A stretch of 64,000 nt of DNA, taken from an uncultured Planctomycetales bacterium. GTDB taxonomy: Bacteria > Omnitrophota > Gorgyraeia > Zapsychrales > JANLHA01. Under the pieces are notes generated by a model that searched no databases, had not been told where the DNA came from, and saw nothing but the letters and a program-made list of their open reading frames with translations. The translations under genes were made by a program, and so were the position numbers. The DNA lies in assembly GCA_964374105.1 (NCBI GenBank), contig CAYJXI010000007.1, positions 13,096 to 77,095 on the forward strand, read 5' to 3'. This document shows, one piece after another, positions 11,736 to 41,253 of this stretch (the stretch's first letter is position 1; each line of letters begins with the position of its first letter).

Positions 11736-11763
11736 TTTAAGATAATAAGTTCATCCTAGTTTA

Positions 11764-11822
11764 AAGGGGACAGTTCCTTGATTAGAGAAAAGGGGCTGTC
11801 CCCTTTTTCTTTTTGTTGTATA
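11764..11822 (+). terminator. Rho-independent terminator (GACAG-core hairpin family)
   Basis: aggggacag ... ctgtcccct stem followed by tttttctttttg. Confidence 0.5.
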
Positions 11823-11888
11823 ATGGGGGGCAAAAATCAAATAGGGAACTGTTCCCACCTCCAATGGGAAAAAGCCTCAAATTGCGCT

Positions 11889-12080
11889 ATGATCAAGAAT
11901 AAATACCTTATGATGTTGGTGAGCTTATTCTCCATCATTATTCTTCTTCAAAACACTCAGGTGACGACCTTCCAGATCCTTTTCTGGAAGGTGAGTATGT
12001 CCAGGATCTTATTTCTGATTTTGGTTTTGTCATTGGGATTTGTATTAGGGTATTTGTTCGGGTCTCAAAGACATCGTTAA
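11889..12080 (+). CDS. LapA/DUF1049-family small inner-membrane protein
   Basis: Two TM segments with NTQVTTFQILFWKVSMS...LGFVLGYLFG resembling the LapA domain. Start taken at ATG 11889 (MIKNKY). Confidence 0.4.
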   Translation: MIKNKYLMMLVSLFSIIILLQNTQVTTFQILFWKVSMSRILFLILVLSLGFVLGYLFGSQRHR

Positions 12081-12092
12081 AATTTTTGTGAG

Positions 12093-13169
12093 ATGAAACC
12101 CAAAACTCCTAAGCTATATAAAAGTGCCTCCCTCAAGGCGGGCCTTCCTCCCGGAACACTGGTTCACATCGGTGAGAAGAAATTAGCGAAAACTGTCATT
12201 AGTGTTTTTGAATACGATCAAGATCAATATCGAGAAAGGCAAGTACAAACAATTGAAGAAAGCTTTCCGGTCAAGGATCGGACCAGCGTTACGTGGGTCA
12301 ATATTGACGGACTTGAACAAATTGATGTCATCGAAAAGATAGATGCGCATTTCGGAATTCATCCGTTGGTGTTAGAGGACATCGTCAGTACCGAACAGCT
12401 ACCCAAACTGGAGGATTACGAAGACTATCTTTTTGTCGTTTTAAAGATGTTTTATCTGGATGATAGAAAGAAAGAAATTAAAATTGAACAAATCAGCATT
12501 ATCCTCGGCCTCAATTATGTGATTTCTTTCCAAGAAACACCAGGGGATATTTTTGATCCCATTCGGGAAAGGATAAGAAATGATAAAGGCCGCATTAGAA
12601 AAATGGGAGCCGATTATCTGGCCTATTGTTTGCTGGATTCGATTGTTGATCATTATTTTATTGTCTTTGAGCACCTGGGAGGGATCCTGGATCATCTTGA
12701 GGAACAACTGCTGAAAAACCCATCGGTGGCGATGGCCCAAGAACTGCATTACCTTAAACGCGAAATGATTTATTTACGGAGATACATCTGGCCGGTCAGA
12801 GAGTTAGTCACCGGGCTTTTAAGGACTGAATCAAAGTTGATCAAGAAAACCACAAATATTTATTTACGCGATTTGTACGATCATTCCATCCAGGTTATGA
12901 ATTCCATTGATTCCTACCGAGATCTCTTGGCAGGGATGCACGATATTTATCTCTCTAGCCTCAGCCAAAAGATCAATGAGGTCATGAAGGTCTTAACGAT
13001 TATCTCCGCCGTTTTTAGTCCCATTACCTTTATTGTTGGCGTTTACGGAATGAACTTTAAATACATGCCGGAATTAGAGTATCCATGGGGGTATTTTATT
13101 GTCTTAGGTGTGATGTGGTTGATCAGTTTATCGATGTTGATGTATTTCAAGATAAAGAAGTGGTTGTAA
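12093..13169 (+). CDS. corA: Magnesium/cobalt transporter CorA
   Basis: 358 aa with the C-terminal YGMNFKYMPE (GMN motif) followed by a TM2 acidic end. Typical CorA architecture. Confidence 0.9.
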   Translation: MKPKTPKLYKSASLKAGLPPGTLVHIGEKKLAKTVISVFEYDQDQYRERQVQTIEESFPVKDRTSVTWVNIDGLEQIDVIEKIDAHFGIHPLVLEDIVSTEQLPKLEDYEDYLFVVLKMFYLDDRKKEIKIEQISIILGLNYVISFQETPGDIFDPIRERIRNDKGRIRKMGADYLAYCLLDSIVDHYFIVFEHLGGILDHLEEQLLKNPSVAMAQELHYLKREMIYLRRYIWPVRELVTGLLRTESKLIKKTTNIYLRDLYDHSIQVMNSIDSYRDLLAGMHDIYLSSLSQKINEVMKVLTIISAVFSPITFIVGVYGMNFKYMPELEYPWGYFIVLGVMWLISLSMLMYFKIKKWL

Positions 13170-13261
13170 TTGCCGTCTAAAGAGCAGGGATAGGGCATGC
13201 CCGTCTTGTTTCGCATCGAAAAGAGTGGCCTGCTCTTTTCTTCAAAGATATCCTGATTTAA

Positions 13262-13292
13262 GAAAAGTGGCCACGTGGCCACTTTTCTCTTG
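13262..13292 (+). terminator. Terminator-like perfect palindrome gaaaagtggccacgtggccacttttc followed by a T-rich tract
   Basis: 26-nt perfect inverted repeat with tctcttgg after it, about 90 nt downstream of the corA stop. Confidence 0.45.
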
Positions 13293-13775
13293 GAGGTGTG
13301 CCGAGCATGAACAGTGGTTAGAGAGGGTGAGTTCAGAACATCGTATACCCATAACAGGATTACGCCTTTTGATTATGGTTACGAGATCCGTTTCGGTCAA
13401 GGTTACGTTATTCGCTTCTTCTCAACGACAAACGTCACCGAAAGCCGATACGGTTATCGTCTCCGTAACCGAAGGATGTAAGACAGAGTGTCGTTACCAG
13501 AGTAAACGATGTCTTGATATTTGACATGTAGTTGAGGGGTCGGAGAGTTTCCGACCCCTCATGACCCCTCGGGTAAGGTAGCTTAAAAACTCCCCGAGTG
13601 GTCATGTAGTTAGAAGAGTCAATCAACAAAGAAGTGATTTTTGTTGCCTTCTCTACCCTGTGCCCTCTCAAGAAATGTGGTTTACGACCCCCACCTTGTT
13701 AATTGCTGCAAATAATTTTATACTTTTATTAAGATAAATCTTAAAATTCATCCTTATAATTTTCAAATAAAACAA

Positions 13776-16700
13776 GTGATGTTCCAAACAAAAGTTTCTA
13801 GATTGTTTTTGAAGGTCACAGCCCTTCTTGTTATTTTCTCAATGGTTGTGACATCGAATCTTTTATTTCTGGGAGAAAGGGCCTATGCCCAAGTCATTAA
13901 CCTAGGATCCAGTGGGCTTACTCTTCCCTCTCCCGGCAGTCTTGTCTCGTTGAGTGCTGGGTTTCAACCGGTTGTCCTGAAAGGTATTAAAGTATATCCG
14001 CAGAATCCATTCCATTTTGACTTTATTGTTGATACCGGCGACAGCAAACTTAAAGAAGACCAGTTAAAGCAGGAGTCGACCAGACTGATTAAATATTTTC
14101 TGGCCTCCTTGACTGTTCCAGAAGATCAGATGTGGGTGAATTTATCCCCTTATGAAAAGGAACGGATCATCCCGGAAAGCTTTGGTGTCACCGAGATGGG
14201 ACGGGATATGTTACTGCAGGATTATCTCTTAAAGCAGTTAACTGCCTCGTTGATTTACCCGGAGCATGATTTGGGGAAGGCCTTTTGGGAGAAGATCTAT
14301 CAGAAGGCCTATGAGCAGTACGGGACAACAAATATTCCGGTCAATACCTTCAACAAGGTGTGGATTCTACCAGAGCGGGCAGTTGTCTATGAACACGAAG
14401 GGATGGCCTTTGTGGGGGAATCCCGCTTGAAGGTGATGCTGGATCATGATTATCAGGCTTTAAGAAGTCAACTGCTAAAGGATCAAGGTGCCACGGATCC
14501 CTCGCTTAAGGCTAAGGAGGTTAATGATCTTTCCGGCTCAATAGTCAAGGATTTGATCGTTCCGGCGATTGAAAAAGAGGTCAACGAAGGGGAAAACTTT
14601 GCCAATTTGCGGCAGATCTATCATTCGCTAATTTTGGCGGCTTGGTATAAGCGGACTTTGAAGGAGAGTCTTCTAGGTCAACAGTATGTTGATCAAAATA
14701 AGGTCAAAGGCATTGACCTTGAAGATAAAGAGATCAAGCAAAAGATCTATGAGCAATATCTTAAGGTGTTTAAGAAAGGGGTTTACAACTATATCCGGGA
14801 GGATTACGATCCCTACACCCAAGAATCCATCCCTCGCAAGTATTTCTCAGGAGGGATTGAGTGGAAGATCAATGAAGATTTACAAGTCACTAATGTGAGG
14901 GAAAAGAAAACATTCACAAGGCTCTTTCAAGGAGTTGTGGCGGGTGTGGTCATGCTGGCGAGTGTGGCCTTAAGAAGTCCTGCCTATGCTCAAGACAATA
15001 CCATATCACCTCTTCCCCAACCTCCAGCCCCTGGCCTATTAGAAAATGAGGAAAAGCCTATCGAAAAAGAAGCCCCCAATCAAGGTGTGGTCATTAAAAA
15101 CTTGGACTCAATCGCTAAAGAAGGCCCTCTTGATGAGAAAGATTTTAAAGATGGCTTTGACTTGAGGGATGCTTTAAACGCTATCTATCAATCGGATGAA
15201 GCTGATGAGTTTAAACAGAAGGTTGTCTCAGCCAAAATATTTTCAAGGCTTTTTAATGTTTATTATGAAAATCTGATGGATGAGAAGAAGGCTGATCGTT
15301 TAAAAGTGCGTGCAGTTCACTTAGCTGAAATTGTTGGTACTATTTTAAGGCATCAGCAAAATGAGATTGAAGAAGAAATTCTTGAGAACGATATTATCGG
15401 GAAAATTCGCAATATTTATCACGCGGAGGTTGTCAATCGCAAACTGCTCTTTGAGTTAGCAAGAACCGGCCCTTCTTCTCATGAGGAGGGTTCCTCCCTG
15501 AAACAACCCAATCGAAGCTATTTCAATTGGGTGTGGCAAGAAAAAATCCAGGAACATATTGATGAAGGAAGGTTCCCCAATATTCAACAAAAGTTTGGCC
15601 CGCAAGTACCATCTTTAAGAGATCAAATGAGATTTTATAATGGAGGGGCATTTGAGCTGACCAAGGCCGTTGTTAAATTAGGCCAATCAAAAAATCAAAG
15701 AGTAATAAAGGAGATCAAAAAGGCGGGATTAATCAAATCCCTTTTTCATTACGCAACCCTTCCTTCTCCTGTTAATGGTTATGTCTCTGCCACTACCGAG
15801 ACCATGTTGGGTCTAGCCGAAATCATCGAAGCCCAGCCAGGGTTTTTCTTAGAAGAACTCAATGAGATCGATGAGGTCCTTGGCCAGAGCATAGTAGATT
15901 TTATCAAAGACAACCTTGGGAAAGAACACGCTGCCCCTTATCAAAGATTAACAGATTCTAAAGCATCACCAAGTTATGAAAAAGCCTTTAGAAAGATTAA
16001 AGAAGCTACCACAGATGCAACCTCATTCATTGATGAGGCGGATTTCTCGATAAAAGTTTCCCAAGAAGTCTTAGAAACTTTAAGAAAGACATCCAGTGGG
16101 CAAGATGAGAACGGTTATTTTCTTTTTGTGAATAAAGGAACTGGTGTCATTGAGAAAGTAACGAATAGGTATGTTCATTCAAACAGGACGAATTTTTACG
16201 TTAACGAAGGTTTTCTTCATTACGCCAATGAGCTTGCCAAAAAACATGGGTATCTTTTGATCGGAGATTTTCATGCCCATCCGGATACCTTTATTAACCT
16301 TAAAGAGATGCCAGAAGAAGGATTCAAAGATGATGGCAGGGCCTATGATTTGTTAAGTCGGGGAGATTCCGTTTCGGGTCAGGTAAGGACTAAGCAACTG
16401 AATTTTTTGGGTGTGGGTTTCGATGGGAACTTTGAGGTTTTAGTCTATTTGCCCCTTTTTGAAAAAACACTGGGTGTGGGGCATGCTTATCTTAAGAGAA
16501 AAGATGAATTTCTAGACAAAGGTGTTTTTCCGGCTAGATCGCGGGTCATCAAAAATAGAAGTCAAGAGCTCGTGAGATTAAAATTAAAGGTCGTTGATTC
16601 AACAGTTCCGAGTGACCTAGATATCTTGGATCAATATCCCCCTTTCATCAAACAGAGTAAAAAGGAATTGAATTCTCAAGAATATGGTGATCTCATTTAT

Positions 16701-19700
16701 AACCTTAAAAAGATTGGCCTTGCTAACATGACGATTACATCCGCTGGATTAAAGATAAAGGGACTCGAGGCAAGGTTACAAGCCTTACGCGATCGACTAC
16801 AGACAGAGGATGTTAAAAAAGAAATAGAGAACTTACAAGAAGAAATCCAAAAATTAAGAAAAGTCTCTTATGAAAAAGACCATGATCATTTTGATTTTGT
16901 AGGAGAAAAGGATCCGGGAGTCATTATTTTTGTGGAAAGACAAGATGGAATCTTTGTCATCAGCGGTTCGGTTAATGACATCGATGATTTCCAATTGTGG
17001 TACAAGGAACACGATGGTTCTATTGCTACTTTGCTATTTCGGGTTGGGACAAACTTATATACAGCACACGAGAAAGATGCAACGGAAGTTGCCAGATTTT
17101 TACAATCATGGATAAAAATGCATAAAGCAGGGATAGGGGAGGGTATCTTGCAAAAGGTATCAGCAATAGAGAATCTCCCTCGTCAAGTCGGTGCTTTGTT
17201 GCGGGAGAATCAGGTGGAGGAATTGGATAATTTTGTCTCGGAAGAATACCTTAAGTTCATCAATACTAATCAAACATTGCTTGAGGAGTTTACCAGGGGA
17301 GTCTTGGATCGGGGTGTTTCGATTGAAACATGGGAACTTCTTCAAAAGAAAGGTGGCCCGTGGGGAAAAATTGCTAATAGTGTCTTAAAGAAATTGGGTG
17401 GGGAGGCAGAAATTCTCAAGAAGACAAAGCAGATCATTGATGATGGCATCAAGGAAAAGCGAACTCCTCAAGAATTAAGGCAGAAACTTACGGAGCTTAT
17501 AAAATATAGCAGTATCTACCGAGATATGATCTCTGGAGGAGTGACTCGATTGATTGAAAAAAGAAAGGTTGAAAATGATTTTGCGTTGAGATTGTTTGTG
17601 GTTTATGTGGCTAAATATACCTATGTTTATCTTTTAGATCAGCTAGGTCTGAGGGGTGAGGAGTTTGATAACTTTTTAGAAGAGTTTTTAGACTCAACCA
17701 CCCCTTATTATGAGGATAAACTGATTTGGGATGGGACAATTGATTATAAAGAAGGACATATCAAACCAAATTTAAATGCCAAGATCCGCGGGATCGAATG
17801 GATATTTGATATAGTCATCCACGAAGCGATCCATAAGATTGTTGCCGCCGATTGGATGCGGGAATATTTAAGATTAAATTTTGGTGATGACATGCGTTGG
17901 CTGTTGGCTACAGCGTTGGGGAGATTCAATGCCGGCATTATGGAAGGGACATTTCTTGAAGCGGGATTTCAACCTCCCTTTGGAAAGGAGACTTTTGTGG
18001 ATCGCCAAAGAACACCCTTCTTAACCCATGCAAAATTTCGTCTTATCCCTGATACGATTAGAACATGGGATGAAGTTGTCAAATATATCGAAGAGAATAA
18101 AGGGGGAAAAACCTGGGGTGATGAGCCAGGCAAATCCTATATCGAAGGAGATCTCTTAGCGGTATACTCAGCCTATCATTATGGTAAGGGGGGGGGTCTT
18201 CTTATCAGACTTTACGGAACCCGATTCAAGGAATTGAATTTTGCTCAGATGGAGTTGGCGGCAGCGGTTCTAAGGAATATCTTAAAGGGTCATGAGGTAG
18301 AAGGGTCGTTTTTTGATTTGGAAGAGAAAATCATCGTTGAGGTAAGAAAATTAGATTTGAGAGATGATACGACCTACGAGACCTTAGAGGAAAAAGAAAA
18401 GGGACTGACCGAATCTTTAATAAAAGAGTTGAAAGAAGCCGGTCAAATTAAAGAAGTCAAAAAGACTTCCCAAAATATCCGTGATCGAGAGGAGACTAAA
18501 AAAGATCAGGCGATTCTGACGGATGGCTTAAATGCCCAAGGGATTGCTCAACTTGACTATGGAGCGATTGTCTCGGCTATCAAAAAAGCAGAAGAACAGC
18601 ATGTCAGTCCCCTTGATTTGGCTCGTGAGCTTTTCCAAAAAAACAATATATCATTGGATGAACAAAATCAATTAACTCTTTATACCTTCCTTGTCGTTCT
18701 TGATGCCTTAAGGAGAATCGGGATAGTTTATGAAAATCTTCAGCCCCCCACTTTGGTGGGGATGATGAGGGTGCTTCTCCCTCATTTAAAGAGCTTGGAT
18801 CCTCAAAACAAAGATCCTTTGGGGACCATCAGAAAAATTGAGGAAGGTATTAATGATAGAAATTCAAAGATCTTTCAAGAGTTTATTGAGCATATCCTTG
18901 ATGTTAAGGATTTAATCTCCCCCACGACCGGACGAAGCCGATATCCTGACCAGACCTTTTTCTTGCAAGAATTTGCCCTGCCGCGGTTGATTGCCTTTAA
19001 AAAGATGAGGAATGACCGGGTGATCCGAATCGGGAGTCTGGGTTCATCCACTGGAGAAGACTTAATGAAATTGGCTGAGACGGTTTCGATAGTCTTCCAT
19101 CAGACTGGGGAAAACTTAAACGATTGGAAAATCATTTTGGAAGCGCGGGATGTCTCAGCTAAGTCCCTCAATGTGTTTAGAGAAACAGCGCAAGCGGAAT
19201 TGACTCATCCTGTTTTTCAGATTGAAACAAAAGTGACGATTCTGGGGGATAAGGAAGATCTCAAGGAGATTTCCAATCTTTCCTATGACATCTTAGCGGT
19301 TCGAGCAGTTGGGGAATATTTAAGGCCGCAGATAAGGACACAATTAGGAGATGCTCTTCATTCCACTTTGCTTCTTTCCGATCGTCATATCATCCCCAAC
19401 AATGAATCTTATCTCTCTTTCGCTGAAGTGGGACCTTTTCAGAATGTGCACCAATCCCGAAAAGGGGATTTCCCTCTGATTCAACTTAAGCCTCAAGAAC
19501 AAGAAAAAATCAAAGAATATCAAATCAAGAAAATGATTCCTCTGATCCAATTGGAACTTAAAGAGGCCATCCCGCGTATCTTTGCAGAGGAAGGGCAGAT
19601 CAGAGAGCTCATTGAAACGTTAGCACAAGAAACAAAGGAATCTTCAGATACCATTTTCAAGTTCATTATGGATTCTGCCCGTCATGTCGATTTGGAAGAT

Positions 19701-22700
19701 GAAGAAAGAATCAAGGCCTTACTCTTTGATGAAACGAAAGCAGAAGAGACAGGGACTTTTGCTGAATTTAAAGAGAGGGTTATGAAAGGATGGGATAAAA
19801 GGAAGAAATCCCCTCAGGGGGAGGAAGGCATTAAGAAAGATGAGGCAATCCTGACAAGTTTAGAAAAATTGGAACAAGATTTTTTAGACGGGACTCTGTT
19901 ACAAGAAGGAATTGCTCGAATCAATCAAGAGCATCCAGAGTTAAATATTAGAAAATCTTCCGACATTTCCAAACTTAATAGCAAAGTCGCTAATTTCGAT
20001 ATTGCCTTTTTACCTTTACTGACCAAAATCCCTCAGGCGGTTTTGACCGATCAAGATTGGGGGATTTATCGACTGACTAAAGAAGGAATTGAATTGAGAA
20101 GTGGGGATGGGATTCAGAAAGAATTGATTCCCTTTACGAAAGAGGCTCAAGCGCTTATCGCTAAACTCCTAGAGAAGTATGAGGAGGTTTACTTCGACCA
20201 AAGAATTAATGCAACAACGAAATCCTATGTTGTCCACCCCTTTTATTACGATCAAGGAGATATGTCAATCGCCATTTCTTTGATTAGACGGGGTATTGAT
20301 TTGGTAAGTCAAACAATTGATATAGATCATGAAGAACACCGCAGGGTTTTATTTACCGATGAAGAATGGGACATGAATATTCATCAAGATCGACCTATGC
20401 CGGTGCAGTTTACCTTAATCATCTTAGGTCTTTTGGAAAGATTGCCAGCGATTTTAAGACCGGGGGTCACAAGAGAGGATTGGTACTGGGTCCCACGCGA
20501 GAGTGGTATTGAATTTGTCAATAAAGTGACGGGTGAACATGAATGGGTCAATTTTACTCCCGATGAAACGGTTTTGAATTTACCAGAAACTCAAAAGATC
20601 AGGCACATCTTTGAGATTTTAAGGTTATTACCTTCGCATCATGCCATGAATGACTTGGATCAGAAGTTGTTAAAAAATGAACAAGGGTTATTAACGATGT
20701 ATGATCAATTGCGATTAGCTATCCAAAGAAATTTTGATGATCATGTTCCTTTAGCCTACGATCAATATGAAATTTTAGCCGGCCTAAAAAATCGAGGGAA
20801 GGTCCTAGAGCAAGAAGCGATCAACAGCCGATTCACGTTAAGAGAATTACAACTTATCTATGCAATGTTGTCCTCCTTACCTAGAGAAATTGTTGATCAA
20901 TACCAAGATCAATTCTTTTCTTTTCGGCCTCGGGAATTAAGAAATTTTACACAATCTTATCCAGAAGATGGGCATGCCTCTTTGGTGATTGCACCTTTAA
21001 ATATGCGGGAGGTATGGATGTTTTGGGATATCATTCGAAGTAAAGAAATCCGTGGCTATTTAGGTCAATTCACGAAAGAGAAAATCATTGAACTTTCTTT
21101 TATCCGGATGCTTTTGCACGAGCTAGCCCACCGGGTCTATAAAAATCTTGATACAAAACTTCAACGTGCTTATGGTGGGATTTCCTGGGATATGAAGTCT
21201 TGGACTGGACAGGAAGCCACGAAAAAAAGGAACCAGGGGAGGCGTTTCTTGGGAAAACATTTCCTCATTGATTATGCCTTCCCTGAGGAAGATAATTCGC
21301 AAGAAGATTTTGTGGATCAGTTCTCGGCTTATATTTTATTTGGTCCCCAGTTTCGAAGGGCAGCCGAACGTTCCGCCGCCATCAAGGCCAAATATAATTT
21401 TTTTAAGAATATATTCAAAGGGAATGAGTACGAAAGGAATTTTGATTATCATGCTAAAGTCCCTCAGATCGATCAGGCAATGATCACACAGGATGAACTG
21501 AAACAAAAGCAGGCTAAAGTGGATCAGATGTTAGAGCAGGTGCGTGCCTTGCGGGAGGGGCCTCACACATCCCTTAATCTTAAAAAGACCGCTGAGGATT
21601 TTGAAAAAGTTTATCCGCGATTGTTAGAATTTTCCGATCACCTCATTCAGCGTTATCAAGAGATAGCGAATCGATACAGATTAAACCCAGGTGAGATAAG
21701 ACTTTATATGGTTGGTGGACGTGTGAGGGGAACGCCACTTAAAGAAGATAGTGATATTGATTTGATTTTTGCAGTGGAGAATCCGGGAAGTTCATTGGGA
21801 AGAATTCCGTTTGAGCGATTTTCCGATCCATTAGAAGCATGGGATTTTAAATTAGATCGGATGAAGGAATTGTTGGCTGATGTATCCAAGATTTCAAATC
21901 AGTTAGGTGTTAGGAACCTTTTTCATATTTTAAGTCTTGATGTAAAGATTCCTGAGGATGATTTGATTGTAACCCAAGAGAGACTTTTATTAGCAAAATC
22001 GAAGGGACAAACGACTGCCTTTCCCGCAACGACGACAACCCCTCAACGAGATGAGGCGATGGTGACGCCAGATCGTCAGCCCCAGCAGATCTTGATGGAA
22101 AGGATGGGCTTTGCCAGTGCTATGCTGGAATTGAAATTGAATATTCATGGTTTGGAGATGGAGAATCTCTTTCAACATTATGAGAAAGAACATGACGCTT
22201 ACATCTTAGACGATAAAGTCATGGATGTGATGGGACAACTGGGTGGGATGAAAAATGGGGAGGCTCTTAATTTGGTTGGTTTTGTTTTTATCCGCGGGAG
22301 CACGGTAGAAAAACTTAAAACAGCTGATAAGGAGGCATTCCTCTCTTTAAGGCATGAACAGAGGCACAATGATTATCATGCCATTCACGGCTATGCCATT
22401 GAATCCAGCGAACAAAAACTCATTGATGAATTGTATGCTTACTTTGCCTCATTTATCCAAATCTACGGGGTGGAAGGCCTCACAACAATCCAAGAACGAC
22501 AGATCGGCACAGGCCCCTGGGCCCAGATTGTTCTCAATGTCCTCATTCAGGATTATTTGAAGGATGAGCGTGAGGAGGCACTTAAAGCAGATCTCATTGA
22601 ACGGCTTCGCTATGTGGCCAGTATCTTAGATTGGTATTTAAAAACTCAAGATCCCAATATGATCTTGGAATTTTTAAAAACAGCCACCTCATTGAATCAA

Positions 22701-23801
22701 ATCTTGGCAATGGTGAATTTTGATTATCTCAAAGACAATTTGAAAGAAAAGATTCCTTTAGAAGAATATGAGCGGCTTGCTGGCCAATTTAGAAAATTTA
22801 GAAGTGATTTCCAAACAATGAAATCAAAAGAGGGTGGCCGTGCTTCTCAATTTGAGGCAAATCCCCAACGCGACCAGGCGATGGTGACAAAACCAGGAGA
22901 ACCATTGATCCCTCCTTTATGGGAAGGGCAGATTCGGTATGTTCCGGAAGCGATGGTCAAGAAGGGAGGCTGGAAACTCCATTTGCGGGTTCAACCGCAT
23001 GGAAGATTCGCAGAGATTATCCACAAGTGGCTGTGGAGGAATACAAAAAAAGGAGAGGTCGGTTATAAATATTTACATGGGGGAGACAAGGGAGAAAAAG
23101 ATTTTACAATTTATGTAGGACCTAAAAAAGATGCTGATCAACTGGCCATCAAAATTTCCCAAGAGATTGGGTATCTCTTAAGGAATCCAGGAGAACATAT
23201 TCTCGAAACAGACATCGAATTCGCTCCCAAAGTCTGGGGCCGGTTCGATGTGAAGGATATTGAAGGGAATCAATACTTCTATGGGATGGTAAGGGCGGGT
23301 GTTGAAGGAACAGGGATTCCCATCTTGAAGAAAGATTGGCATGAGAGGTTTAGATTATTGTTTAATTATGGGAAGCCCCGCTCACCACAACAAGAGAAAG
23401 CCGACCACAAGAAACTGCGCCAATCAGAACCATTGTTTATCCAAAGAGCGTTTGATCTCTTGAAAAATGAGTTGGGAGACTATTTTACAGGCGGGGCAGA
23501 AAATGTCGAAGGGCTTTCTCCTAAAGGAGAGAGACCTTTGGAACAAGAGGGGAAAAGTAAAGATGAAGCTATGATCACAAAGCCTGTTGGTGGGATTGAC
23601 TTTGCACCTGGGAATTTGATTTTGGATATAAAGAGAGATGCTAACGGGGCGCCACTTCCTTTGCCAGTTCAGCAGATGCAGCAGATCAAAATTGATGGAC
23701 TTGTGCCGGTGATTATTCAGATCACACCGGTGACGAATTTCCCACTTCTTTTTGGCCTGTCGGAACAAGGGACCGAAGAACAGCTTTCCTTAAAGGATTG
23801 A
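13776..23801 (+). CDS. Giant (3341 aa) secreted/membrane-anchored multidomain protein of unknown function
   Basis: Uninterrupted 10,026-nt ORF with an N-terminal hydrophobic signal/anchor (...FLGERAYAQ). Internal motifs include HEAIH, HELAH and an NTase signature GGRVRGTPLKEDSDIDLIFAVEN. Confidence 0.8.
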   Translation: MMFQTKVSRLFLKVTALLVIFSMVVTSNLLFLGERAYAQVINLGSSGLTLPSPGSLVSLSAGFQPVVLKGIKVYPQNPFHFDFIVDTGDSKLKEDQLKQESTRLIKYFLASLTVPEDQMWVNLSPYEKERIIPESFGVTEMGRDMLLQDYLLKQLTASLIYPEHDLGKAFWEKIYQKAYEQYGTTNIPVNTFNKVWILPERAVVYEHEGMAFVGESRLKVMLDHDYQALRSQLLKDQGATDPSLKAKEVNDLSGSIVKDLIVPAIEKEVNEGENFANLRQIYHSLILAAWYKRTLKESLLGQQYVDQNKVKGIDLEDKEIKQKIYEQYLKVFKKGVYNYIREDYDPYTQESIPRKYFSGGIEWKINEDLQVTNVREKKTFTRLFQGVVAGVVMLASVALRSPAYAQDNTISPLPQPPAPGLLENEEKPIEKEAPNQGVVIKNLDSIAKEGPLDEKDFKDGFDLRDALNAIYQSDEADEFKQKVVSAKIFSRLFNVYYENLMDEKKADRLKVRAVHLAEIVGTILRHQQNEIEEEILENDIIGKIRNIYHAEVVNRKLLFELARTGPSSHEEGSSLKQPNRSYFNWVWQEKIQEHIDEGRFPNIQQKFGPQVPSLRDQMRFYNGGAFELTKAVVKLGQSKNQRVIKEIKKAGLIKSLFHYATLPSPVNGYVSATTETMLGLAEIIEAQPGFFLEELNEIDEVLGQSIVDFIKDNLGKEHAAPYQRLTDSKASPSYEKAFRKIKEATTDATSFIDEADFSIKVSQEVLETLRKTSSGQDENGYFLFVNKGTGVIEKVTNRYVHSNRTNFYVNEGFLHYANELAKKHGYLLIGDFHAHPDTFINLKEMPEEGFKDDGRAYDLLSRGDSVSGQVRTKQLNFLGVGFDGNFEVLVYLPLFEKTLGVGHAYLKRKDEFLDKGVFPARSRVIKNRSQELVRLKLKVVDSTVPSDLDILDQYPPFIKQSKKELNSQEYGDLIYNLKKIGLANMTITSAGLKIKGLEARLQALRDRLQTEDVKKEIENLQEEIQKLRKVSYEKDHDHFDFVGEKDPGVIIFVERQDGIFVISGSVNDIDDFQLWYKEHDGSIATLLFRVGTNLYTAHEKDATEVARFLQSWIKMHKAGIGEGILQKVSAIENLPRQVGALLRENQVEELDNFVSEEYLKFINTNQTLLEEFTRGVLDRGVSIETWELLQKKGGPWGKIANSVLKKLGGEAEILKKTKQIIDDGIKEKRTPQELRQKLTELIKYSSIYRDMISGGVTRLIEKRKVENDFALRLFVVYVAKYTYVYLLDQLGLRGEEFDNFLEEFLDSTTPYYEDKLIWDGTIDYKEGHIKPNLNAKIRGIEWIFDIVIHEAIHKIVAADWMREYLRLNFGDDMRWLLATALGRFNAGIMEGTFLEAGFQPPFGKETFVDRQRTPFLTHAKFRLIPDTIRTWDEVVKYIEENKGGKTWGDEPGKSYIEGDLLAVYSAYHYGKGGGLLIRLYGTRFKELNFAQMELAAAVLRNILKGHEVEGSFFDLEEKIIVEVRKLDLRDDTTYETLEEKEKGLTESLIKELKEAGQIKEVKKTSQNIRDREETKKDQAILTDGLNAQGIAQLDYGAIVSAIKKAEEQHVSPLDLARELFQKNNISLDEQNQLTLYTFLVVLDALRRIGIVYENLQPPTLVGMMRVLLPHLKSLDPQNKDPLGTIRKIEEGINDRNSKIFQEFIEHILDVKDLISPTTGRSRYPDQTFFLQEFALPRLIAFKKMRNDRVIRIGSLGSSTGEDLMKLAETVSIVFHQTGENLNDWKIILEARDVSAKSLNVFRETAQAELTHPVFQIETKVTILGDKEDLKEISNLSYDILAVRAVGEYLRPQIRTQLGDALHSTLLLSDRHIIPNNESYLSFAEVGPFQNVHQSRKGDFPLIQLKPQEQEKIKEYQIKKMIPLIQLELKEAIPRIFAEEGQIRELIETLAQETKESSDTIFKFIMDSARHVDLEDEERIKALLFDETKAEETGTFAEFKERVMKGWDKRKKSPQGEEGIKKDEAILTSLEKLEQDFLDGTLLQEGIARINQEHPELNIRKSSDISKLNSKVANFDIAFLPLLTKIPQAVLTDQDWGIYRLTKEGIELRSGDGIQKELIPFTKEAQALIAKLLEKYEEVYFDQRINATTKSYVVHPFYYDQGDMSIAISLIRRGIDLVSQTIDIDHEEHRRVLFTDEEWDMNIHQDRPMPVQFTLIILGLLERLPAILRPGVTREDWYWVPRESGIEFVNKVTGEHEWVNFTPDETVLNLPETQKIRHIFEILRLLPSHHAMNDLDQKLLKNEQGLLTMYDQLRLAIQRNFDDHVPLAYDQYEILAGLKNRGKVLEQEAINSRFTLRELQLIYAMLSSLPREIVDQYQDQFFSFRPRELRNFTQSYPEDGHASLVIAPLNMREVWMFWDIIRSKEIRGYLGQFTKEKIIELSFIRMLLHELAHRVYKNLDTKLQRAYGGISWDMKSWTGQEATKKRNQGRRFLGKHFLIDYAFPEEDNSQEDFVDQFSAYILFGPQFRRAAERSAAIKAKYNFFKNIFKGNEYERNFDYHAKVPQIDQAMITQDELKQKQAKVDQMLEQVRALREGPHTSLNLKKTAEDFEKVYPRLLEFSDHLIQRYQEIANRYRLNPGEIRLYMVGGRVRGTPLKEDSDIDLIFAVENPGSSLGRIPFERFSDPLEAWDFKLDRMKELLADVSKISNQLGVRNLFHILSLDVKIPEDDLIVTQERLLLAKSKGQTTAFPATTTTPQRDEAMVTPDRQPQQILMERMGFASAMLELKLNIHGLEMENLFQHYEKEHDAYILDDKVMDVMGQLGGMKNGEALNLVGFVFIRGSTVEKLKTADKEAFLSLRHEQRHNDYHAIHGYAIESSEQKLIDELYAYFASFIQIYGVEGLTTIQERQIGTGPWAQIVLNVLIQDYLKDEREEALKADLIERLRYVASILDWYLKTQDPNMILEFLKTATSLNQILAMVNFDYLKDNLKEKIPLEEYERLAGQFRKFRSDFQTMKSKEGGRASQFEANPQRDQAMVTKPGEPLIPPLWEGQIRYVPEAMVKKGGWKLHLRVQPHGRFAEIIHKWLWRNTKKGEVGYKYLHGGDKGEKDFTIYVGPKKDADQLAIKISQEIGYLLRNPGEHILETDIEFAPKVWGRFDVKDIEGNQYFYGMVRAGVEGTGIPILKKDWHERFRLLFNYGKPRSPQQEKADHKKLRQSEPLFIQRAFDLLKNELGDYFTGGAENVEGLSPKGERPLEQEGKSKDEAMITKPVGGIDFAPGNLILDIKRDANGAPLPLPVQQMQQIKIDGLVPVIIQITPVTNFPLLFGLSEQGTEEQLSLKD

Positions 23802-24540: not shown

Positions 24541-24656
24541 TCCGCCTTAAAGATAATCATTCTTATTTTTCTTCATTATTTCATACAAACTTTGTCTCAA
24601 AGTTGTTACAATTGACTTGTTGTAAATTCTTTTTAAGGAGAAGACAAGGAGAGAAA

Positions 24657-25922
24657 ATGAAAAAATTGGGGTTAGTATCATTGATTTTGATTCCCATGAT
24701 TTTTCCTGGGCAGATTGCGGCTGAGGAGGCCTTGCCTTCGAACCTGTCGGATTTGATTGAACAGGCCGTTAAAAATAATCCCTCGATTAAGGCGCAATAT
24801 AGCCAATGGCAGGCCGCCAAAAACCGTGTCCCGCAGGCTTCGAGTTTACCCGATCCTATGGGTGGCTACGCGGTCATGGGGCCGATGCTGGAGACGCGGT
24901 TAGGTCCCCAGAAAGATATGTACGAATTTGAACAAATGATTCCCTTTCCTGGGAAACTCTTTGAGCGAAGAAAAATGGCGGAAGCCCAGGCCCGGATGGC
25001 TGAGGCCAAATACAAAATGACCGAGCAAGAGGTGATCTTGAGGGTCAAAGAGGTCTATTACGATCTTTTTTCCGTGGAGGCCTCTTTAAGGATTTTAGAG
25101 GAAATCCGAGATTTAATGAGGAACTTTGAATCGATTGCCCAAGCGAGGTATGCCAGTCAGTCCGCAGGTCAGGGGGAGGTGGCCAAGGCCCAGGCCGAAG
25201 TTTCCGAGGCGTTAAAACAGATTTTTACGCTTCGCCAACAGAAAGAAACTCTGGTAAGCCTGATGAATTCTCTTCTTAATCGCGATCATTCCACTCCTTG
25301 GGAAGGACTCATAACCGAACCCACCTTGCCGCCCTTGGATCTCAATCTCGAAGAATTACTCACCGAGGCTAGAAACAATCGTCCCGAACTGAAAGAAGCA
25401 TTGGCTATGCAAAAAAGAGAAGAGCACGGCAAGTCTTTAGCCAAGTATGAATATGCCCCGGATCTGACGGTGGGTTTCCAATATTTTCGTATTGGAGAAC
25501 GTGAAACCAATGAGGCCGATGATGGTCGGGATGCCTGGATGATTCCCATTAAATTTACTATCCCTTTGTGGCAGAATCGAATTGTCCCCACCATCGCGGA
25601 GGCCAAAAACAATTTAAAAGCCAGTGAAGCACGCTTTAGGGAAGTTAGCAATGAAACCGAATATGAAATCAAGCGTGCTTTTTTTCAATTTACAAATCAG
25701 AAACAAATTGTGGAGCTCTATCGGAATGCCTTTATCCCGCAGGCCGAGTTAGCTTTTCGCTCGGATCAAGCGGGGTATGAATCGGGGTCAACCGATATTT
25801 TACAACTGATTGACAGCGAAAGGGTTTATCTTAATGCAAAAATGTCTTATTATCAGACATTAGCTGAGGTCATGAAGAGTTTTGCAGTTATCGAAAGAAT
25901 TGTGGGAAAAGAATTGAAATAA
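24657..25922 (+). CDS. TolC-like outer membrane efflux protein (CusC/OMF family)
   Basis: Signal peptide, then two OEP-type repeats (LSDLIEQAVKNNPSIKA... and LEELLTEARNNRPELKEALA...). The ATG at 24657 follows aaggagag. Confidence 0.8.
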   Translation: MKKLGLVSLILIPMIFPGQIAAEEALPSNLSDLIEQAVKNNPSIKAQYSQWQAAKNRVPQASSLPDPMGGYAVMGPMLETRLGPQKDMYEFEQMIPFPGKLFERRKMAEAQARMAEAKYKMTEQEVILRVKEVYYDLFSVEASLRILEEIRDLMRNFESIAQARYASQSAGQGEVAKAQAEVSEALKQIFTLRQQKETLVSLMNSLLNRDHSTPWEGLITEPTLPPLDLNLEELLTEARNNRPELKEALAMQKREEHGKSLAKYEYAPDLTVGFQYFRIGERETNEADDGRDAWMIPIKFTIPLWQNRIVPTIAEAKNNLKASEARFREVSNETEYEIKRAFFQFTNQKQIVELYRNAFIPQAELAFRSDQAGYESGSTDILQLIDSERVYLNAKMSYYQTLAEVMKSFAVIERIVGKELK

Positions 25923-25938
25923 GAAGGGAGTAAGCATC

Positions 25939-27357
25939 ATGTCACGAAATAAATTTGTGGTCCTACTCATAATCATTCTTATGATCACGGGAGTGATTCT
26001 CACCATCAAAGGAGGGAATCTTCCCCGCTCTCAAAATAAAAAGGAAAAGGCGGTTTACTATTGTCCTATGCACCCAACTTACATCAGTGATAAGCCCGGG
26101 GATTGCCCTATCTGTTATATGAAGTTAGTCAAGAAAGAAGATTCCAATCCCGTGCCAGCAAAAGAACAAATGGTGCAAAGGATGAAAGACATTTGCATCA
26201 TGCACAATTGTCCTAAAAAACATGAGGGTAAAATTTGTCCGATGTTGATGGTGACCGAAGAAGGTGAAAAGGTTACCTGTCCTATTTGCGGGATGCATGT
26301 GGTGGGAGAAACGGCCGCACTTAAAGAGAAAAGAATTTTGTATTGGACGGACCCCATGATCTCGGGATATAAATCAGAAAAACCGGGGAAATCACCCATG
26401 GGAATGGATTTGATTCCTGTTTATGAAGAAGAGGGTGTAACTCAATCCCAAGGATCAACTCCTGAAGGTTATGCCTCAGTTGTTCTTTCTACTCAAAAGC
26501 AGCAATTGATCGGTATCAAAACGGCAAAGATCGAGAAAAAAAGGCTCAACAAAACAATTCGAACAGTTGGTACCATTGCCCATGACCCAGAACTTTATCA
26601 AGCCCAATCGGAATATATTCAAGCGATTAAGGCTTACCAACAGGCGCAAGCAAGTTCTATCCCAGAAATTGTTGACCAATCCAAACGCCTGCTGGAATCC
26701 ACTCGAATTCGTTTGAAACATCTAGGCCTCAGTGATGATCTGATTGAAGAAATCGCCACATGGAAAGAGCCGGAGCACAGCCTGCTTTTTGCCCATCCGG
26801 GAGATCCAGTATGGATGTATGCCCAAATCTACGAATTTGAACTGCCCCTGATTAAAGTTGGGCAGGAAGTTGATGCGGGAATCCCTTCTCTTCCCGGTGA
26901 AGTTTTTAAAGGGAAAATACGTGCGATTGATCGAATGGTTGAACCAACGACAAGAACGACCCGAATTCGGGTCTTAATAGAAGATCTTAAAGGGCACCTT
27001 AAACCGGATATGTATGTCAATGTCACGCTCAACATTGATCTGGGGGAAACTCTCACCGTTCCGGTTGAGGCGGTTTTTAATACCGGCACACGACAGATTG
27101 TTTTTCTTGATGAAGGTCAGGGGATCTTTACTCCCCGCGATGTTGTCTTAGGAACAAAGACAGAAAATGATTATGAGGTTAAAGAGGGTCTTAAAGAACA
27201 GGAAAGTGTCGTTGTCAGCGGCAACTTCTTGATTGATTCCGAAAGCCGTCTTAAATCGGCCATTGAGGGAATGATTTCTGAAAAAGGAAGTCCTAAAGGC
27301 AGCCCAATGGCTGAAGAGCCATCCTCAACGACAGGAGGCAATCGCCATGGACAATAG
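25939..27357 (+). CDS. Efflux RND periplasmic adaptor (CusB-like) with N-terminal tandem metal-binding motifs
   Basis: N-terminus carries YYCPMHPTYISDKPGDCPICYMKLV (heavy-metal-binding domain), two further Cys-rich copies, and a degenerate copy YWTDPMISGYKSEKPGKSPMGMDLIPV. This is followed by the membrane-fusion-protein body (HlyD-like beta-barrel/lipoyl regions). Confidence 0.8.
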   Translation: MSRNKFVVLLIIILMITGVILTIKGGNLPRSQNKKEKAVYYCPMHPTYISDKPGDCPICYMKLVKKEDSNPVPAKEQMVQRMKDICIMHNCPKKHEGKICPMLMVTEEGEKVTCPICGMHVVGETAALKEKRILYWTDPMISGYKSEKPGKSPMGMDLIPVYEEEGVTQSQGSTPEGYASVVLSTQKQQLIGIKTAKIEKKRLNKTIRTVGTIAHDPELYQAQSEYIQAIKAYQQAQASSIPEIVDQSKRLLESTRIRLKHLGLSDDLIEEIATWKEPEHSLLFAHPGDPVWMYAQIYEFELPLIKVGQEVDAGIPSLPGEVFKGKIRAIDRMVEPTTRTTRIRVLIEDLKGHLKPDMYVNVTLNIDLGETLTVPVEAVFNTGTRQIVFLDEGQGIFTPRDVVLGTKTENDYEVKEGLKEQESVVVSGNFLIDSESRLKSAIEGMISEKGSPKGSPMAEEPSSTTGGNRHGQ

Positions 27358-30300
27358 TCTTAAAAAATCCAATCCATCTCCCATTGAAGAAACAGGGGGG
27401 GAGCGGGAAAATAATGATGGCATTATTGAAAAGGTGATTGACTTCTCGGCCCGCAACAAGTTTATCATTTTCATTCTCATCATTGCCGCTATGATGGCCG
27501 GGTATGTCTCTTTAATAAATATCCCTTTGGATGCGATTCCTGATCTTTCTGACACTCAGGTCATTATTTACTCTCGGTGGGATCGTAGTCCCGATATCAT
27601 TGAGGACCAAGTGACTTACCCGATTGTGACAGCGATGCTGGGGGCGCCTCAAGTCAAGGCGATCCGCGGATTTTCGGATTTCGGATTTTCTTATGTTTAT
27701 GTCATCTTTAAGGATGGAACTGATGTTTACTGGGCGCGCAGTCGCACCTTGGAATACTTAAGTAAGATCATCCCGCGTTTGCCCGAAGGGGTTAGAACCG
27801 AATTGGGACCGGATGCCTCCGGGGTGGGGTGGGTCTATCAGTATGCCTTGGTGGATAAATCTGGGCAGCATAGCCTGCAAGAGTTAAGAAGCTTTCAAGA
27901 TTGGTACCTGCGTTATCATCTGCAGAGTGTTCCGGGAGTCGCGGAGGTTGCTTCTCTAGGAGGGTTTGTCAAACAGTATCAAATCACAATTGATCCTAAT
28001 AAACTCCTTGCGTACAACATATCTCTCCCTAGGGTTATTGAGGCCGTCCGCAAAGGGAATCAGGAGGTGGGAGGCAGACTCCTGGAATTTTCCGGGGCCG
28101 AGTATATGGTTCGGGGGCGTGGTTATGCAAAGTCCATCAAGGATTTGGAAGACATTGTGGTAGAGACCAAGGAGAAGGGAACGCCTATTTTGGTTAAAAA
28201 TTTGGGCAATGTGGCCTTGGGGCCGGAAATCCGTCGGGGATTGGCGGATCTGGATGGAGAAGGAGATGTGGTGACCGGAACTGTGGTGATGCGTTATGGA
28301 GAAAATGCCCTCAATGTCATCAACAGGGTCAAAACGAAACTCAAAGAGATTGAACCCTCTCTTCCTAAGGGCGTGGAAGTGGTCAGCCTTTATGATCGTT
28401 CGGAACTCATCAAACGTTCCATTGATACATTAAAGGAAAAACTCCTTGAGGAAATGATTACCGTGAGTTTGGTCATTCTTCTTTTCCTCTGGCATTTAAG
28501 GAGTGCCCTGATTCCGATTTTTACCTTACCGATTGCGGTTCTGATTTCTTTTATACCAATGTATTCGATGAAATTGACCTCCAATATCATGTCTTTGGGG
28601 GGTATCGCTATTGCCATTGGAGCGATGGTGGATGCCTCGATTGTCCTCATTGAAAATGCCCACAAACGCATTGAACGTTGGAAAGAGGAAGGCCGAAGAG
28701 AACCTTATAATGAAGTTTTGATTTCAGCGGCCAAGGAAGTAGGCCGTCCGATCTTTTTTTCTCTGCTAGTGATTGCGGTGTCATTTATTCCGATCTTCAG
28801 TCTGGAGGCCCAGGAGGGGCGGCTTTTTAAACCCCTCGCCTTCACCAAGAATTATGCGATGGCCTTTGCCGCTCTTTTGTCGGTCACGTTAGCACCCGCC
28901 TTGATGCTTTTATTAATTCGGGAGACAAAGTTTACCTTTAAACCCCGCTGGCTCAGTTCCCTTCTAACCTTCTTTGCCGGTGGAGAAATTCATGCCGAGG
29001 AAAAACATCCCGTCAGCCGTATCTTATTTCATCTTTATGAACCGATTGTCAAATGGGTGGTGGATTACCGTCAAGGTGTGATTGGCTTGGCTGTCATCTT
29101 GGTTCTTCTGACCGTGCCGGTTTACTTCTGGATTGGCCAAGAATTCATGCCGCAGCTGAATGAAGGATCTCTCCTCTATATGCCCACCACTTTACCCGGG
29201 ATTTCTGTTACTGAGGCCCAGCGTTTACTGCAGACTCAGGATAAAATCCTTAAAGGATTTGAAGAAGTCGAAAGAGTCTTCGGAAAGGCGGGACGAATAG
29301 AAAGCTCAACAGATCCTGCCCCCTTTTCAATGATGGAAACCGTGGTGACCTTAAAACCGCAGAACCAATGGTCACGCAAAATCTCTTATGAAGAACTGAT
29401 CTCCCAAATGGATGAGGTTTTAAGGATCCCCGGTTCCACCAATGCCTGGACCATGCCGATCAAGAATCGGATTGATATGCTCACAACGGGAGTAAGGACT
29501 CCTATTGGAATTAAGATATTCGGAGATGATCTTAAAAAAATAGAAGGGATCGGGATTGAGCTTGAGGTGATTTTAAAAGGAATTCCTGGGACACGGAGTA
29601 TTTATGCCGAACGGGTTGCCGGCGGATATTTTCTTGATTTCGATTTGAAACGCGGGGAATTAGCCCGTTACGGGCTAACCGTGGAAGACGCCCAGATGAT
29701 TATTATGACTGCTATCGGAGGAGAAAATATCACCACAACAATCGAAGGCCGGGAACGGTATCCGGTGAATATCCGTTATCCTCGGGAATTACGTGATGAT
29801 GTCGAGAAACTCAAACGGGTTTTGGTCCCCACTCCTTTGGGACAACATATTCCCTTGGTTCAAATCGCTGACATCGTTTTACGTTCAGGGCCGGCGATGG
29901 TCCGCAATGAGAATGGGTTACTGGCTGGTTACGTTTATGTGGATATGACCGGACGCGACCTGGGGGGTTACGTCAAGGAAGCCAAACGGATTGTCCGCGG
30001 AAAATTAAAGCTTCCCACCGGTTATGCCATTGTCTGGAGTGGTCAGTATGAAAATATGGCAAGGGTCATGCAACGGTTGGTAGTGGTCCTTCCCATGACC
30101 TTATTTATCATTTTCTTTTTGCTATACGTCAATACTAAATCCTTAGTCAAAACTTTTATTGTTTTGTTGGCTGTTCCTTTTTCTCTGATTGGGGCTTTAT
30201 GGCTCTTGTGGTTGTTGGGTTACAATATGTCGGTTGCGGTTTGGGTGGGGTTGATTGCCTTAGCCGGAGTGGATGCCGAGACAGGGGTCATTATGCTTTT

Positions 30301-41234: not shown

Positions 41235-41253
41235 ATAAAAGAATAAAAGGTGA

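Follow-up and report, generated by a model that had tools for sequence, protein, structure and literature searches.

A lineage-specific peptide motif at the module boundaries of giant Omnitrophota proteins: a candidate processing site

Omnitrophota stand out by giant proteins with many domains, which are thought to be the basis of a predatory or symbiotic lifestyle but whose function is opaque. We analysed a window of 64,000 nucleotides (nt) from an uncultured member of this phylum (assembly GCA_964374105.1, contig CAYJXI010000007.1, positions 13,096 to 77,095), and all coordinates given here refer to this window. On its plus strand, at 13776..23801 including the stop codon (GTG start, with ATG as the next codon at 13779), it encodes a protein of 3,341 amino acids (aa), here called the giant, which carries six copies of the short motif D[EQ]A[MIL][VIL]T. 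Sequence comparison and structure models strongly support that this motif marks the N-terminal edge of independently folding, exchangeable cargo cassettes. From the sequence evidence and from analogy with known systems, we put at about even the chance that it is a lineage-specific punctuation motif recognised and cut by a trans-acting protease.

A regular-expression search of the six-frame translation returned exactly six matches to D[EQ]A[MIL][VIL]T, all in plus-strand frame 3 within 13776-23801, and no match elsewhere in the 64 kb. The copies, with each range starting at the D codon, are KKDQAILT (site 1, aa 1577; DQAILT at 18504..18521), KKDEAILT (site 2, aa 2022; DEAILT at 19839..19856), IDQAMIT (site 3, aa 2566; DQAMIT at 21471..21488), QRDEAMVT (site 4, aa 2759; DEAMVT at 22050..22067), QRDQAMVT (site 5, aa 3033; DQAMVT at 22872..22889) and SKDEAMIT (site 6, aa 3263; DEAMIT at 23562..23579). 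The sixfold recurrence described in the original prediction is thus confirmed, with nucleotide positions corrected by 4-13 nt. The increasing spacing and the modules of 235-330 aa that it had also described are replaced by measured distances of 445, 544, 193, 274 and 230 aa between consecutive copies. Given the giant's own composition, 0.0036 copies would be expected, and two or more copies occurred in none of 20,000 shuffles. A looser pattern, D.A[MI][LVIMFT], was found at 1.80 per 1,000 residues in the giant versus 0.063 in the other open reading frames (ORFs) of the window. When a weight matrix was derived from 36 instances in other genomes, the giant's six sites were the top six (scores 18.7 to 8.5; next score 4.4), the information being confined to the core D-x-A-M-[LV]-[STAG]. 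These statistics rule out chance or a low-complexity artefact.

Wobble positions vary among the six copies (GAT/GAC, GCG/GCA/GCT, CTG/ATC/GTG, ACG/ACA) and the flanks are unrelated. As wobble bases differ among copies, selection acts on the peptide; the differing codons and unrelated flanks rule out a DNA repeat as well as the simple tandem duplication already discounted in the original prediction. At five of the six sites, disorder-promoting residues are enriched in the 25 residues upstream of the motif (fraction 0.72-0.84 versus a protein mean of 0.57 +/- 0.09), site 3 showing no enrichment (0.56). Low-complexity linkers rich in Pro, Gln and Thr, which had been proposed for every copy, were found at sites 4-6 only; the flanks of sites 1 and 2 are Lys/Glu-rich.

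Next, aa 2022-3221 of the giant were searched with HMMER against 1.84 billion representative proteins. The 287 matches formed four blocks without mutual overlap, located at query positions 5-547, 554-734, 737-1001 and 1004-1200, with motifs 2-5 (query positions 1, 545, 738 and 1012) at the block edges. The only match spanning two blocks was P0121 (100% identical, 3,340 aa), which is the giant itself in public data. All four sites testable against homologues (sites 2-5) were therefore located at homology-block edges, 2-30 residues before a conserved module. Consistent with this, a local phmmer comparison of the whole giant with all collected sequences yielded 0-2 alignments across each internal site, and these were low-confidence extensions. 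The confidently aligned similarity to P0122 and P0123 starts 1-3 residues past site 2, and stand-alone homologues of the last module (M5) stop at ...YG.FFTG, about 22 aa upstream of site 6. In an AlphaFold model of aa 2999-3341, built on 11 sequences, aa 3039-3250 reached block-mean predicted local distance difference test (pLDDT) values of 68-96, except for a dip to 46-58 at aa 3159-3178. Site 5 forms the end of a segment with pLDDT <50 directly ahead of the M5 fold, and site 6 lies inside a segment with pLDDT <50 (model residues 253-287). As both modelled sites belong to low-confidence linker that flanks a confidently predicted fold, the objection that the sites might be buried in folded domains does not apply to sites 5 and 6. 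Together, the homology blocks, the modelled linkers and the motif-flanked cassettes of other proteins described below bear out the proposal of a conserved module boundary.

Judged from their sequences, the modules are a string of unrelated, effector-like enzymes. M1 (aa 1583-2021, 18522..19838) has weak similarity to Pfam CheR, an S-adenosylmethionine-dependent methyltransferase family (E = 3e-4; 20.7 bits, under the cut-off of 27). M2 (aa 2028-2565, 19857..21470; HMMER block at query 5-547) contains HExxH at aa 2448 (nt 21117) and weakly matches the Pfam zincin family WLM (E = 0.0055). M3 (aa 2572-2758, 21489..22049; block at 554-734) matches Pfam NTP_transf_2 at 25.6 bits, over the cut-off of 21, and on this match is a nucleotidyltransferase. 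M4 (aa 2765-3032, 22068..22871; block at 737-1001) has no Pfam model; it is a putative zincin family, with H-E-x-x-H...E invariant in our alignment A3 and HExxH located at aa 2860 (nt 22353). For M5 (aa 3039-3262, 22890..23561), Foldseek searches with the AlphaFold model returned PneKC and ThurKC (probability 0.91-0.99) and the Pseudomonas syringae effector HopA1 (4rsw; 0.87), and the M5 homologue P0264 matched RamC_N at 25.7 bits, under the cut-off of 27. The modelled fold resembles that of the class III lanthipeptide synthetase lyase domain (LanKC), RamC_N and the plant-pathogen type III effector HopA1. Profile searches of the PDB with M3-M5 gave weak, non-significant matches only. M5-related domains also occur in many other proteins of 2,000-5,400 aa without any of the three junction motifs reported here.

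Ahead of site 1 lies a motif-free region of 1,170 aa (aa 407-1576, 14994..18503). It bears a JAMM-like H-x-H-x-D at aa 833 (nt 16272) and HExxH at aa 1349 (nt 17820), and a Pfam scan of it returned no matches. The giant thus contains four metalloprotease-type signatures (H-x-H-x-D at aa 833; HExxH at aa 1349, 2448 and 2860), any of which could, by its sequence, belong to a cis-acting processing enzyme or to an effector.

The giant starts with a Sec-type signal peptide (13776..13889; hydrophobic core at aa 14-32, Kyte-Doolittle peak 2.27), whose layout is the same in homologues and whose predicted cleavage position is between ERAYAQ and V. It is followed by a conserved N-domain (aa 39-372, 13890..14891) that ends in PRKYFSGG and was delimited from homologues, alignment and an AlphaFold model. 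A homologue search with the first 450 residues (E <= 1e-3) detected at least 1,595 N-domain homologues, all with Omnitrophota-type annotations, the top matches at 50-66% identity. The cargo fused to these homologues is highly diverse and includes domains of the M48 peptidase, ankyrin, HEAT, kinase, NUDIX, HAD, GNAT and mannanase types. In alignment A1 the N-domain has 39 invariant columns, and neither Pfam nor NCBIfam holds a model for it. Its AlphaFold model (pLDDT 78.7; predicted template modelling score 0.80) shows two beta-hairpins and long helices. A Foldseek search against the PDB found nothing below E = 0.16; the top matches, NheA and MakB, had a TM-score of 0.12, which is not meaningful, and the N-domain was accordingly rejected as a recognisable protease or pore former. 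From its model, it may be a new fold.

A second conserved element is a tail of about 70 aa, GGI[DN][FLM]...G..PVIINI.P...LLG, which is present in at least 30 of 120 listed N-domain homologues (about a quarter) and in most complete proteins from 26 GTDB Omnitrophota loci, and which has no Pfam or NCBIfam model. In the giant it occupies 23589..23798, starting three residues after site 6 with GGIDF (aa 3272) and running to GLVPVIIQITPVTNFPLLFGL plus an acidic end. The giant's tail can also be written GGIDF...PVIIQITPVTNFPLLFGL followed by acidic residues, and it looks like a sorting or secretion domain. With a signal peptide, an N-domain of about 330 aa up to PRKYFSGG, junction motifs and the GGID tail, the giant has the layout of the family. 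Five of its copies are inter-module and one is pre-tail. None directly follows the N-domain; that place is taken by a second signal-peptide-like or transmembrane segment (aa 381-406, 14916..14993; hydrophobicity peak 1.69) ending in TRLFQGVVAGVVMLASVALRSPAYAQ before D. This segment consists of KK..R, a hydrophobic core and SPAYAQ before D, with the same AYAQ end as the N-terminal signal peptide, and the two are the only hydrophobic segments in the giant. P0008, P0009, P0017 and P0040 carry a similar segment after the N-domain. As a whole, the giant has close relatives only at 99.9% identity or above, the next one being at 41%, and a homology search with its C-terminal 800 aa found nothing at the database-wide threshold.

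Searched for in other giant proteins, the motif recurred across this Omnitrophota family. In the 26 family proteins from the GTDB Omnitrophota loci, D-x-A-M-[LVIMFT] occurs at 0.99 per 1,000 residues versus 0.074 in neighbouring ORFs. Its copies follow the N-domain, separate cargo modules from one another and precede the tail by 5-28 residues. Large relatives (L025, L013, L019, L012, L005 and L011) contain 5-9 copies each, for instance DLAMLS, DEAMLT, DRAMLG, DRAMLT, DAAMLA (twice) and DEAMLS in L025, and in all six the last copy is 9-28 residues upstream of the tail. The pre-tail position of the giant's site 6 has an equivalent in 27 of 48 tail-bearing relatives. Small single-cargo relatives are built as N-domain, motif, 15-45 aa, motif, cargo, motif, 10-25 aa and tail. 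In loci L007 (aa ~400 and ~1674) and L008 (aa ~398), the motif precedes a signal-peptide-like or lipoprotein-signal-like segment (DGAMLSWRAKGLGIAAAALTGLLGLV; DQAMLSDMKRVWLALGLCLAGC, with lipobox), and these cassettes appear from their sequence to bring their own export signal.

Other members of the family carry [AGS]-S-S-P-[VIM] at the same positions, with seven copies in L001 and five in L024; the small SSP proteins are arranged as N-domain, SSPx, 15-35 aa, SSPx, cargo, SSPx, 6-18 aa and tail. The two versions rarely meet in one protein: 54 proteins contain DxAM only, 26 SSP[VI] only, and 3 both. The version is shared with the nearest N-domain neighbour in 60 of 80 cases versus 44 expected, a value reached in none of 2,000 shuffles, and in one genome assembly with four loci holding complete or long ORFs all four use DxAM. 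No co-variation of the N-domain start "LP.PGTMV" with the motif version was seen. A third version, [AS]-[AG]-G-L-E-E, was found in a separate Omnitrophota family that has a signal peptide but not the N-domain (P0130, P0161, P0225, P0133, P0135; L027:57-1757) and ends in its own conserved C-terminus, ...RRMERLESIR.TG.ELQLLSTRA. P0130 has 12 copies, P0161 has 9 and P0225, annotated Candidatus Omnitrophica, has 6; no more than about 10 residues separate the first copy from the point of signal-peptide cleavage.

Cassettes are common to proteins with different versions. M5 is present both in the giant, where DQAMVT stands 27 aa ahead of GGWKLHL, and in the AGLEE family, where AAGLEE stands 20 aa ahead of it in P0130, P0133 and P0135. 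M4 is flanked by DRAM or DSAM in P0129, P0139, P0146 and P0235, and by SSPV in P0131. That a cassette residing in another lineage carries that lineage's motif argues for selection by host machinery. By these sequence comparisons SSP[VI] and AGLEE are shown to be functionally equivalent replacements of DxAM in other lineages.

Based on these data, we propose that the motif serves as short linear punctuation at the N-terminal edges of the cassettes of a Sec-exported multi-effector protein. A lineage-specific endopeptidase acting in trans would recognise the motif and, after a hydrophobic P1 residue, cut the exported precursor there into N-domain, free cargo enzymes and tail. Such processing would deliver or activate effectors (metalloprotease-like, nucleotidyltransferase, HopA1-like) in a host-associated or predatory lifestyle. 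A single short consensus at every boundary that co-varies with lineage, as at the cleavage sites of polyproteins and in the CdiA pre-toxin motifs, points to a trans-acting endopeptidase, as does the freeing of serial effectors by linker cuts in MARTX, and an enzyme acting in trans would be needed because single-cargo members without a protease domain also carry the motif. All versions place a small residue before a hydrophobic one (A-M, P-V, G-L), so that the cut is predicted after the hydrophobic residue. Cleavage at the motif is what we infer from sequence and analogy, and processing at this site is a plausible mechanism and the one that we prefer. Its widest form would be a phylum-wide polyprotein system, in which hundreds to thousands of Sec-exported precursors would be cut at DxAML[ST], SSP[VI] or AGLEE by co-evolving dedicated proteases, releasing effectors and removing the new-fold N-domain and the sorting tail; we hold this to have somewhat less than an even chance.

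Several points weigh against cleavage by a trans-acting protease. No cleavage product has been observed and no protease identified, and no conserved neighbouring gene was found in the 26 loci or in the window. The 1,170 cargo residues at aa 407-1576 are free of the motif despite at least two catalytic signatures, which means that punctuation is not obligatory at every domain boundary. Neither DxAM nor SSP[VI] is present in 58 of 141 family proteins, many of which are incomplete fragments. Moreover, the signal-peptide-like segment at aa 381-406 makes the topology predicted from sequence uncertain: whether the segment acts as an internal signal or, as may equally be, as a stop-transfer anchor decides the compartment of the cargo, which, if cytoplasmic, would be beyond the reach of a periplasmic protease. 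Finally, a non-cleaved docking motif would give the same sequence statistics and is a serious rival.

According to the docking alternative, the motif would be a peptide bound by a chaperone, a surface receptor or part of a secretion or translocation apparatus, and the polypeptide would stay intact; the peptide could keep a module unfolded or pass it to an export channel. The linker location, the selection at peptide level and the lineage-specific versions fit docking equally well. Docking also accommodates the constant position at the N-terminal module edge and the AGLEE copy within about 10 residues of the signal-peptide cleavage site, which is reminiscent of an export or sorting signal. However, one copy stands directly ahead of the C-terminal tail with no cargo after it, the double copies 15-45 aa apart after the N-domain are better explained by excision of a spacer, and no partner gene was found. 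We consider docking unlikely, though by no means negligible.

Post-translational modification of the motif, such as the attachment of O-glycans to Ser or Thr of SSPV or DxAML[ST] in the linkers of a surface protein, is decidedly improbable. The Ala/Ser/Pro-rich linkers around SSP[VI] do resemble low-complexity O-glycosylation acceptor regions, and a hydroxyl residue, Ser or Thr, fills position 6 of DxAM in 23 of the 36 instances. The same position is, however, Ala or Gly in the other 13, the invariant residues are D, A and M rather than S or T, and AGLEE, which has no hydroxyl residue, is found at the same position before the same cassette.

The original prediction had also considered an autoproteolysis site. 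Cis-autoproteolysis, by an N-to-O acyl shift at Ser/Thr or by Asp-mediated cleavage, would be in keeping with the invariant Asp and the frequent Ser/Thr at position 6, but known self-cleaving motifs work within a folded domain that strains the bond. The sites described here are in low-confidence linker before unrelated folds, Ala and Gly are tolerated at position 6 (13 of 36 instances), the only candidate position for a nucleophile, and SSPV and AGLEE share no chemistry with DxAM. Because of the unstructured context, the unrelated downstream folds and the Ala/Gly at position 6, we regard self-cleavage as very unlikely.

The motif might also be the scar or target of cassette-shuffling recombination, with conserved DNA microhomology and the peptide as a by-product. 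Cassettes are clearly shuffled between proteins and lineages, and SSPV is encoded by the identical TCC TCG CCG GTG (TCCTCGCCGGTG) in L001, L024 and L004 from three assemblies, even where these codons are rare; in L004 they run contrary to its codon usage. Recent cassette spread or a guanine-cytosine bias may be the cause of this identity. In contrast, the wobble positions of the DxAM copies in L025, L013 and L019 vary as freely as in the giant. We compared the DNA of six further genes: in the five with SSPV, Ser alternates between TCN and AGY and the Pro and Val codons vary, as do the codons for Leu and Glu in the one with AGLEE. A general conservation of SSPV at nucleotide level is thereby ruled out. 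Since synonymous codons vary in the further genes, all three versions are selected as peptides. In addition, a degenerate 18-nt site is too short for homologous recombination, and a transferred cassette bears the motif of the recipient lineage. The codon variation already counts heavily against a recombination scar, which is largely refuted and to which we assign a very small probability.

The motif might finally act in the RNA, either by starting translation internally at the ATG of DxAM, present in four of the giant's six copies, or as a Shine-Dalgarno-like pause at boundaries (GGAGG in CTG GAG GAG, three of six GLEE copies of P0135 being encoded by CTGGAGGAG). This is the least probable reading of all, as copies 1 and 2 have ATT and ATC, none of the six copies is preceded by GGAG, the other three GLEE copies have no GGAGG, and SSPV lacks both a start codon and anything like a Shine-Dalgarno sequence. 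Two narrower candidates were rejected: a remnant ribosome-binding site and start codon of fused genes, given the missing GGAG, the ATT/ATC copies, the variable x and the absence of Met from SSPV; and GLEE as an internal Shine-Dalgarno sequence, given that GGAGG is present in only three of six copies of the AGLEE gene.

Cleavage by a trans-acting protease can be compared with known systems. In CdiA, a precise cut after the VENN junction motif is needed for toxin entry (PMC9424206), and CdiA/BcpA lineages use alternative junction motifs including DAMV, the latter in one Pseudomonas class (PMC4725963). The pre-toxin junction motifs of CdiA/BcpA (VENN, WVHN, LYVT, DAMV, NEALV, Nx(E/Q)LYN) are similar to ours in that a peptide of 4-6 residues is placed where a conserved delivery region meets variable, exchanged cargo, and in that the motifs differ by lineage. 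CdiA has one junction, a TPS domain and FHA repeats, two-partner secretion and a single C-terminal toxin with a downstream immunity gene, whereas the family described here has up to six or more junctions per protein and the N-domain and GGID tail as carrier. The giant itself has at least five cargo modules. No Pfam match to TPS, FHA or PT-VENN (PF04829) was found in the giant, and the gene downstream of it, where CdiA has its immunity gene, encodes a TolC-like outer-membrane efflux protein. The resemblance between DAMV and DxAMV is probably a coincidence.

MARTX toxins are likewise giant secreted polypeptides with serial unrelated effectors, conserved N- and C-terminal delivery regions and shuffling from strain to strain. 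Their linkers are cut after Leu, which compares with the small-then-hydrophobic pattern of our motifs. Cuts in the unstructured inter-module linkers free the MARTX effector modules (PMC2900308, PMC5218395). MARTX toxins differ by their glycine-rich A/B/C repeats at both ends, an internal cysteine protease domain activated by inositol hexakisphosphate and type I secretion without a Sec signal, and their linkers have no strongly conserved hexapeptide, unlike those of the giant. The giant has an N-terminal Sec-type signal peptide, no match to RTX/MARTX repeat families in Pfam and NCBIfam over its whole length at E <= 1, and no Pfam match to Peptidase_C80, its protease-like signatures being the three HExxH and the H-x-H-x-D only. 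The adjacent TolC/HlyD/AcrB genes form an efflux set of the heavy-metal resistance-nodulation-division (RND) type and not a type I secretion system with an ATP-binding cassette (ABC) transporter.

Polyvalent proteins combine 2-15 unrelated enzymatic domains, including zincin-like peptidases, nucleotidyltransferases and methylases, and their processing into separate effectors has been proposed (Iyer et al. 2017, PMC5512222). They are encoded by mobile elements, delivered together with DNA and devoid of a signal peptide, whereas the giant has a Sec signal, a phylum-specific carrier and a chromosomal housekeeping context. To our knowledge, no conserved junction hexapeptide has been described for polyvalent proteins. 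Viral polyproteins, such as those with picornavirus 3C or potyvirus NIa sites, also carry a short consensus at every boundary that co-varies with the protease of the lineage. They are viral and cytoplasmic and always encode the protease within the polyprotein, whereas single-cargo members of our family carry the motif without a protease domain. Type IX secretion cargo shares a Sec signal, a conserved C-terminal domain of 70-100 aa after a linker cleavage site (PorU) and many paralogues per genome, but that system is specific to Bacteroidota and has neither internal repeated sites nor a conserved N-domain; Por_Secre_tail and TIGR04183 had no Pfam or NCBIfam match in the giant's tail. The archaeovorin/dockerin-type giants of Omnitrophota have at least 30,000 aa, many transmembrane helices, C39/S8 peptidase and SecA-like domains and dockerin/thrombospondin repeats (West-Roberts et al., 10.1101/2023.11.21.568195), whereas the giant has 3,341 aa, two hydrophobic segments and none of those Pfam domains. 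The giant thus appears to work like MARTX, CdiA, type IX cargo, polyvalent proteins and the Omnitrophota giants of at least 30,000 aa, yet is a member of none of these groups.

Junction motifs and multi-effector precursors are known as concepts; what appears to be new is the family, together with the motif, the presence of many copies in a single protein and the existence of three versions. The published accounts of Omnitrophota giant genes that we consulted mention neither the family nor any junction motif, one of them stating that cleavage points are unknown, and a literature search pairing "Omnitrophota" with "polyprotein" found nothing. The boundary motif is a key for splitting the giant proteins of this family into their parts from sequence alone; cassettes can be catalogued by sequence, and their horizontal exchange becomes traceable. 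The mutually exclusive versions offer a handle on the responsible enzyme through phylogenetic profiling. If the phylum-wide polyprotein system were real, the marks would define compatibility groups for horizontally acquired cassettes and be a sequence-only key for dissection. Both carrier elements are uncharacterised in their own right, namely the C-terminal tail and the N-domain, which has at least 1,595 homologues, lacks a Pfam or NCBIfam model and matches no solved structure.

The 74 flanking ORFs of the 26 loci included no dedicated protease or secretion gene and were housekeeping only, e.g. SecA and release factors; likewise, no such gene linked to the giant was found in the window. Several Omnitrophota assemblies contain tandem arrays of two or three large family paralogues (L002:12901-21096; L006:2228-9880; L009:5124-9833; L022:6597-9929; L023:4756-8043 and 11390-15352). 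In the window, which was not compared with phage or plasmid collections, all annotated neighbours of the giant are chromosomal housekeeping, regulatory or transport genes, and no tRNA genes or Rfam matches were found. Three ORFs had no Pfam match at E <= 1e-5 (3127-4167, plus strand, 346 aa; 6004-7773, plus strand, 589 aa; 32803-34122, minus strand, 439 aa). The only protease-family gene noticed in the window encodes a 544-aa protein with an Rce1-like (CAAX/CPBP) intramembrane protease domain (60918-62552), and nothing ties it to the giant. Directly downstream of the giant, at 24603-30613, lies the RND efflux set, consisting of genes for the TolC-like protein, an HlyD-like protein with a heavy-metal-binding domain and an AcrB-like pump. 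Genes of the type IV pilus or type II secretion system type (PilB-like ATPase, PilC-like protein and PilM) are located at 41250-49329, and a PhoU gene together with an ABC-transporter ATPase on the minus strand at 49801-54746 probably represents a phosphate-uptake cluster.

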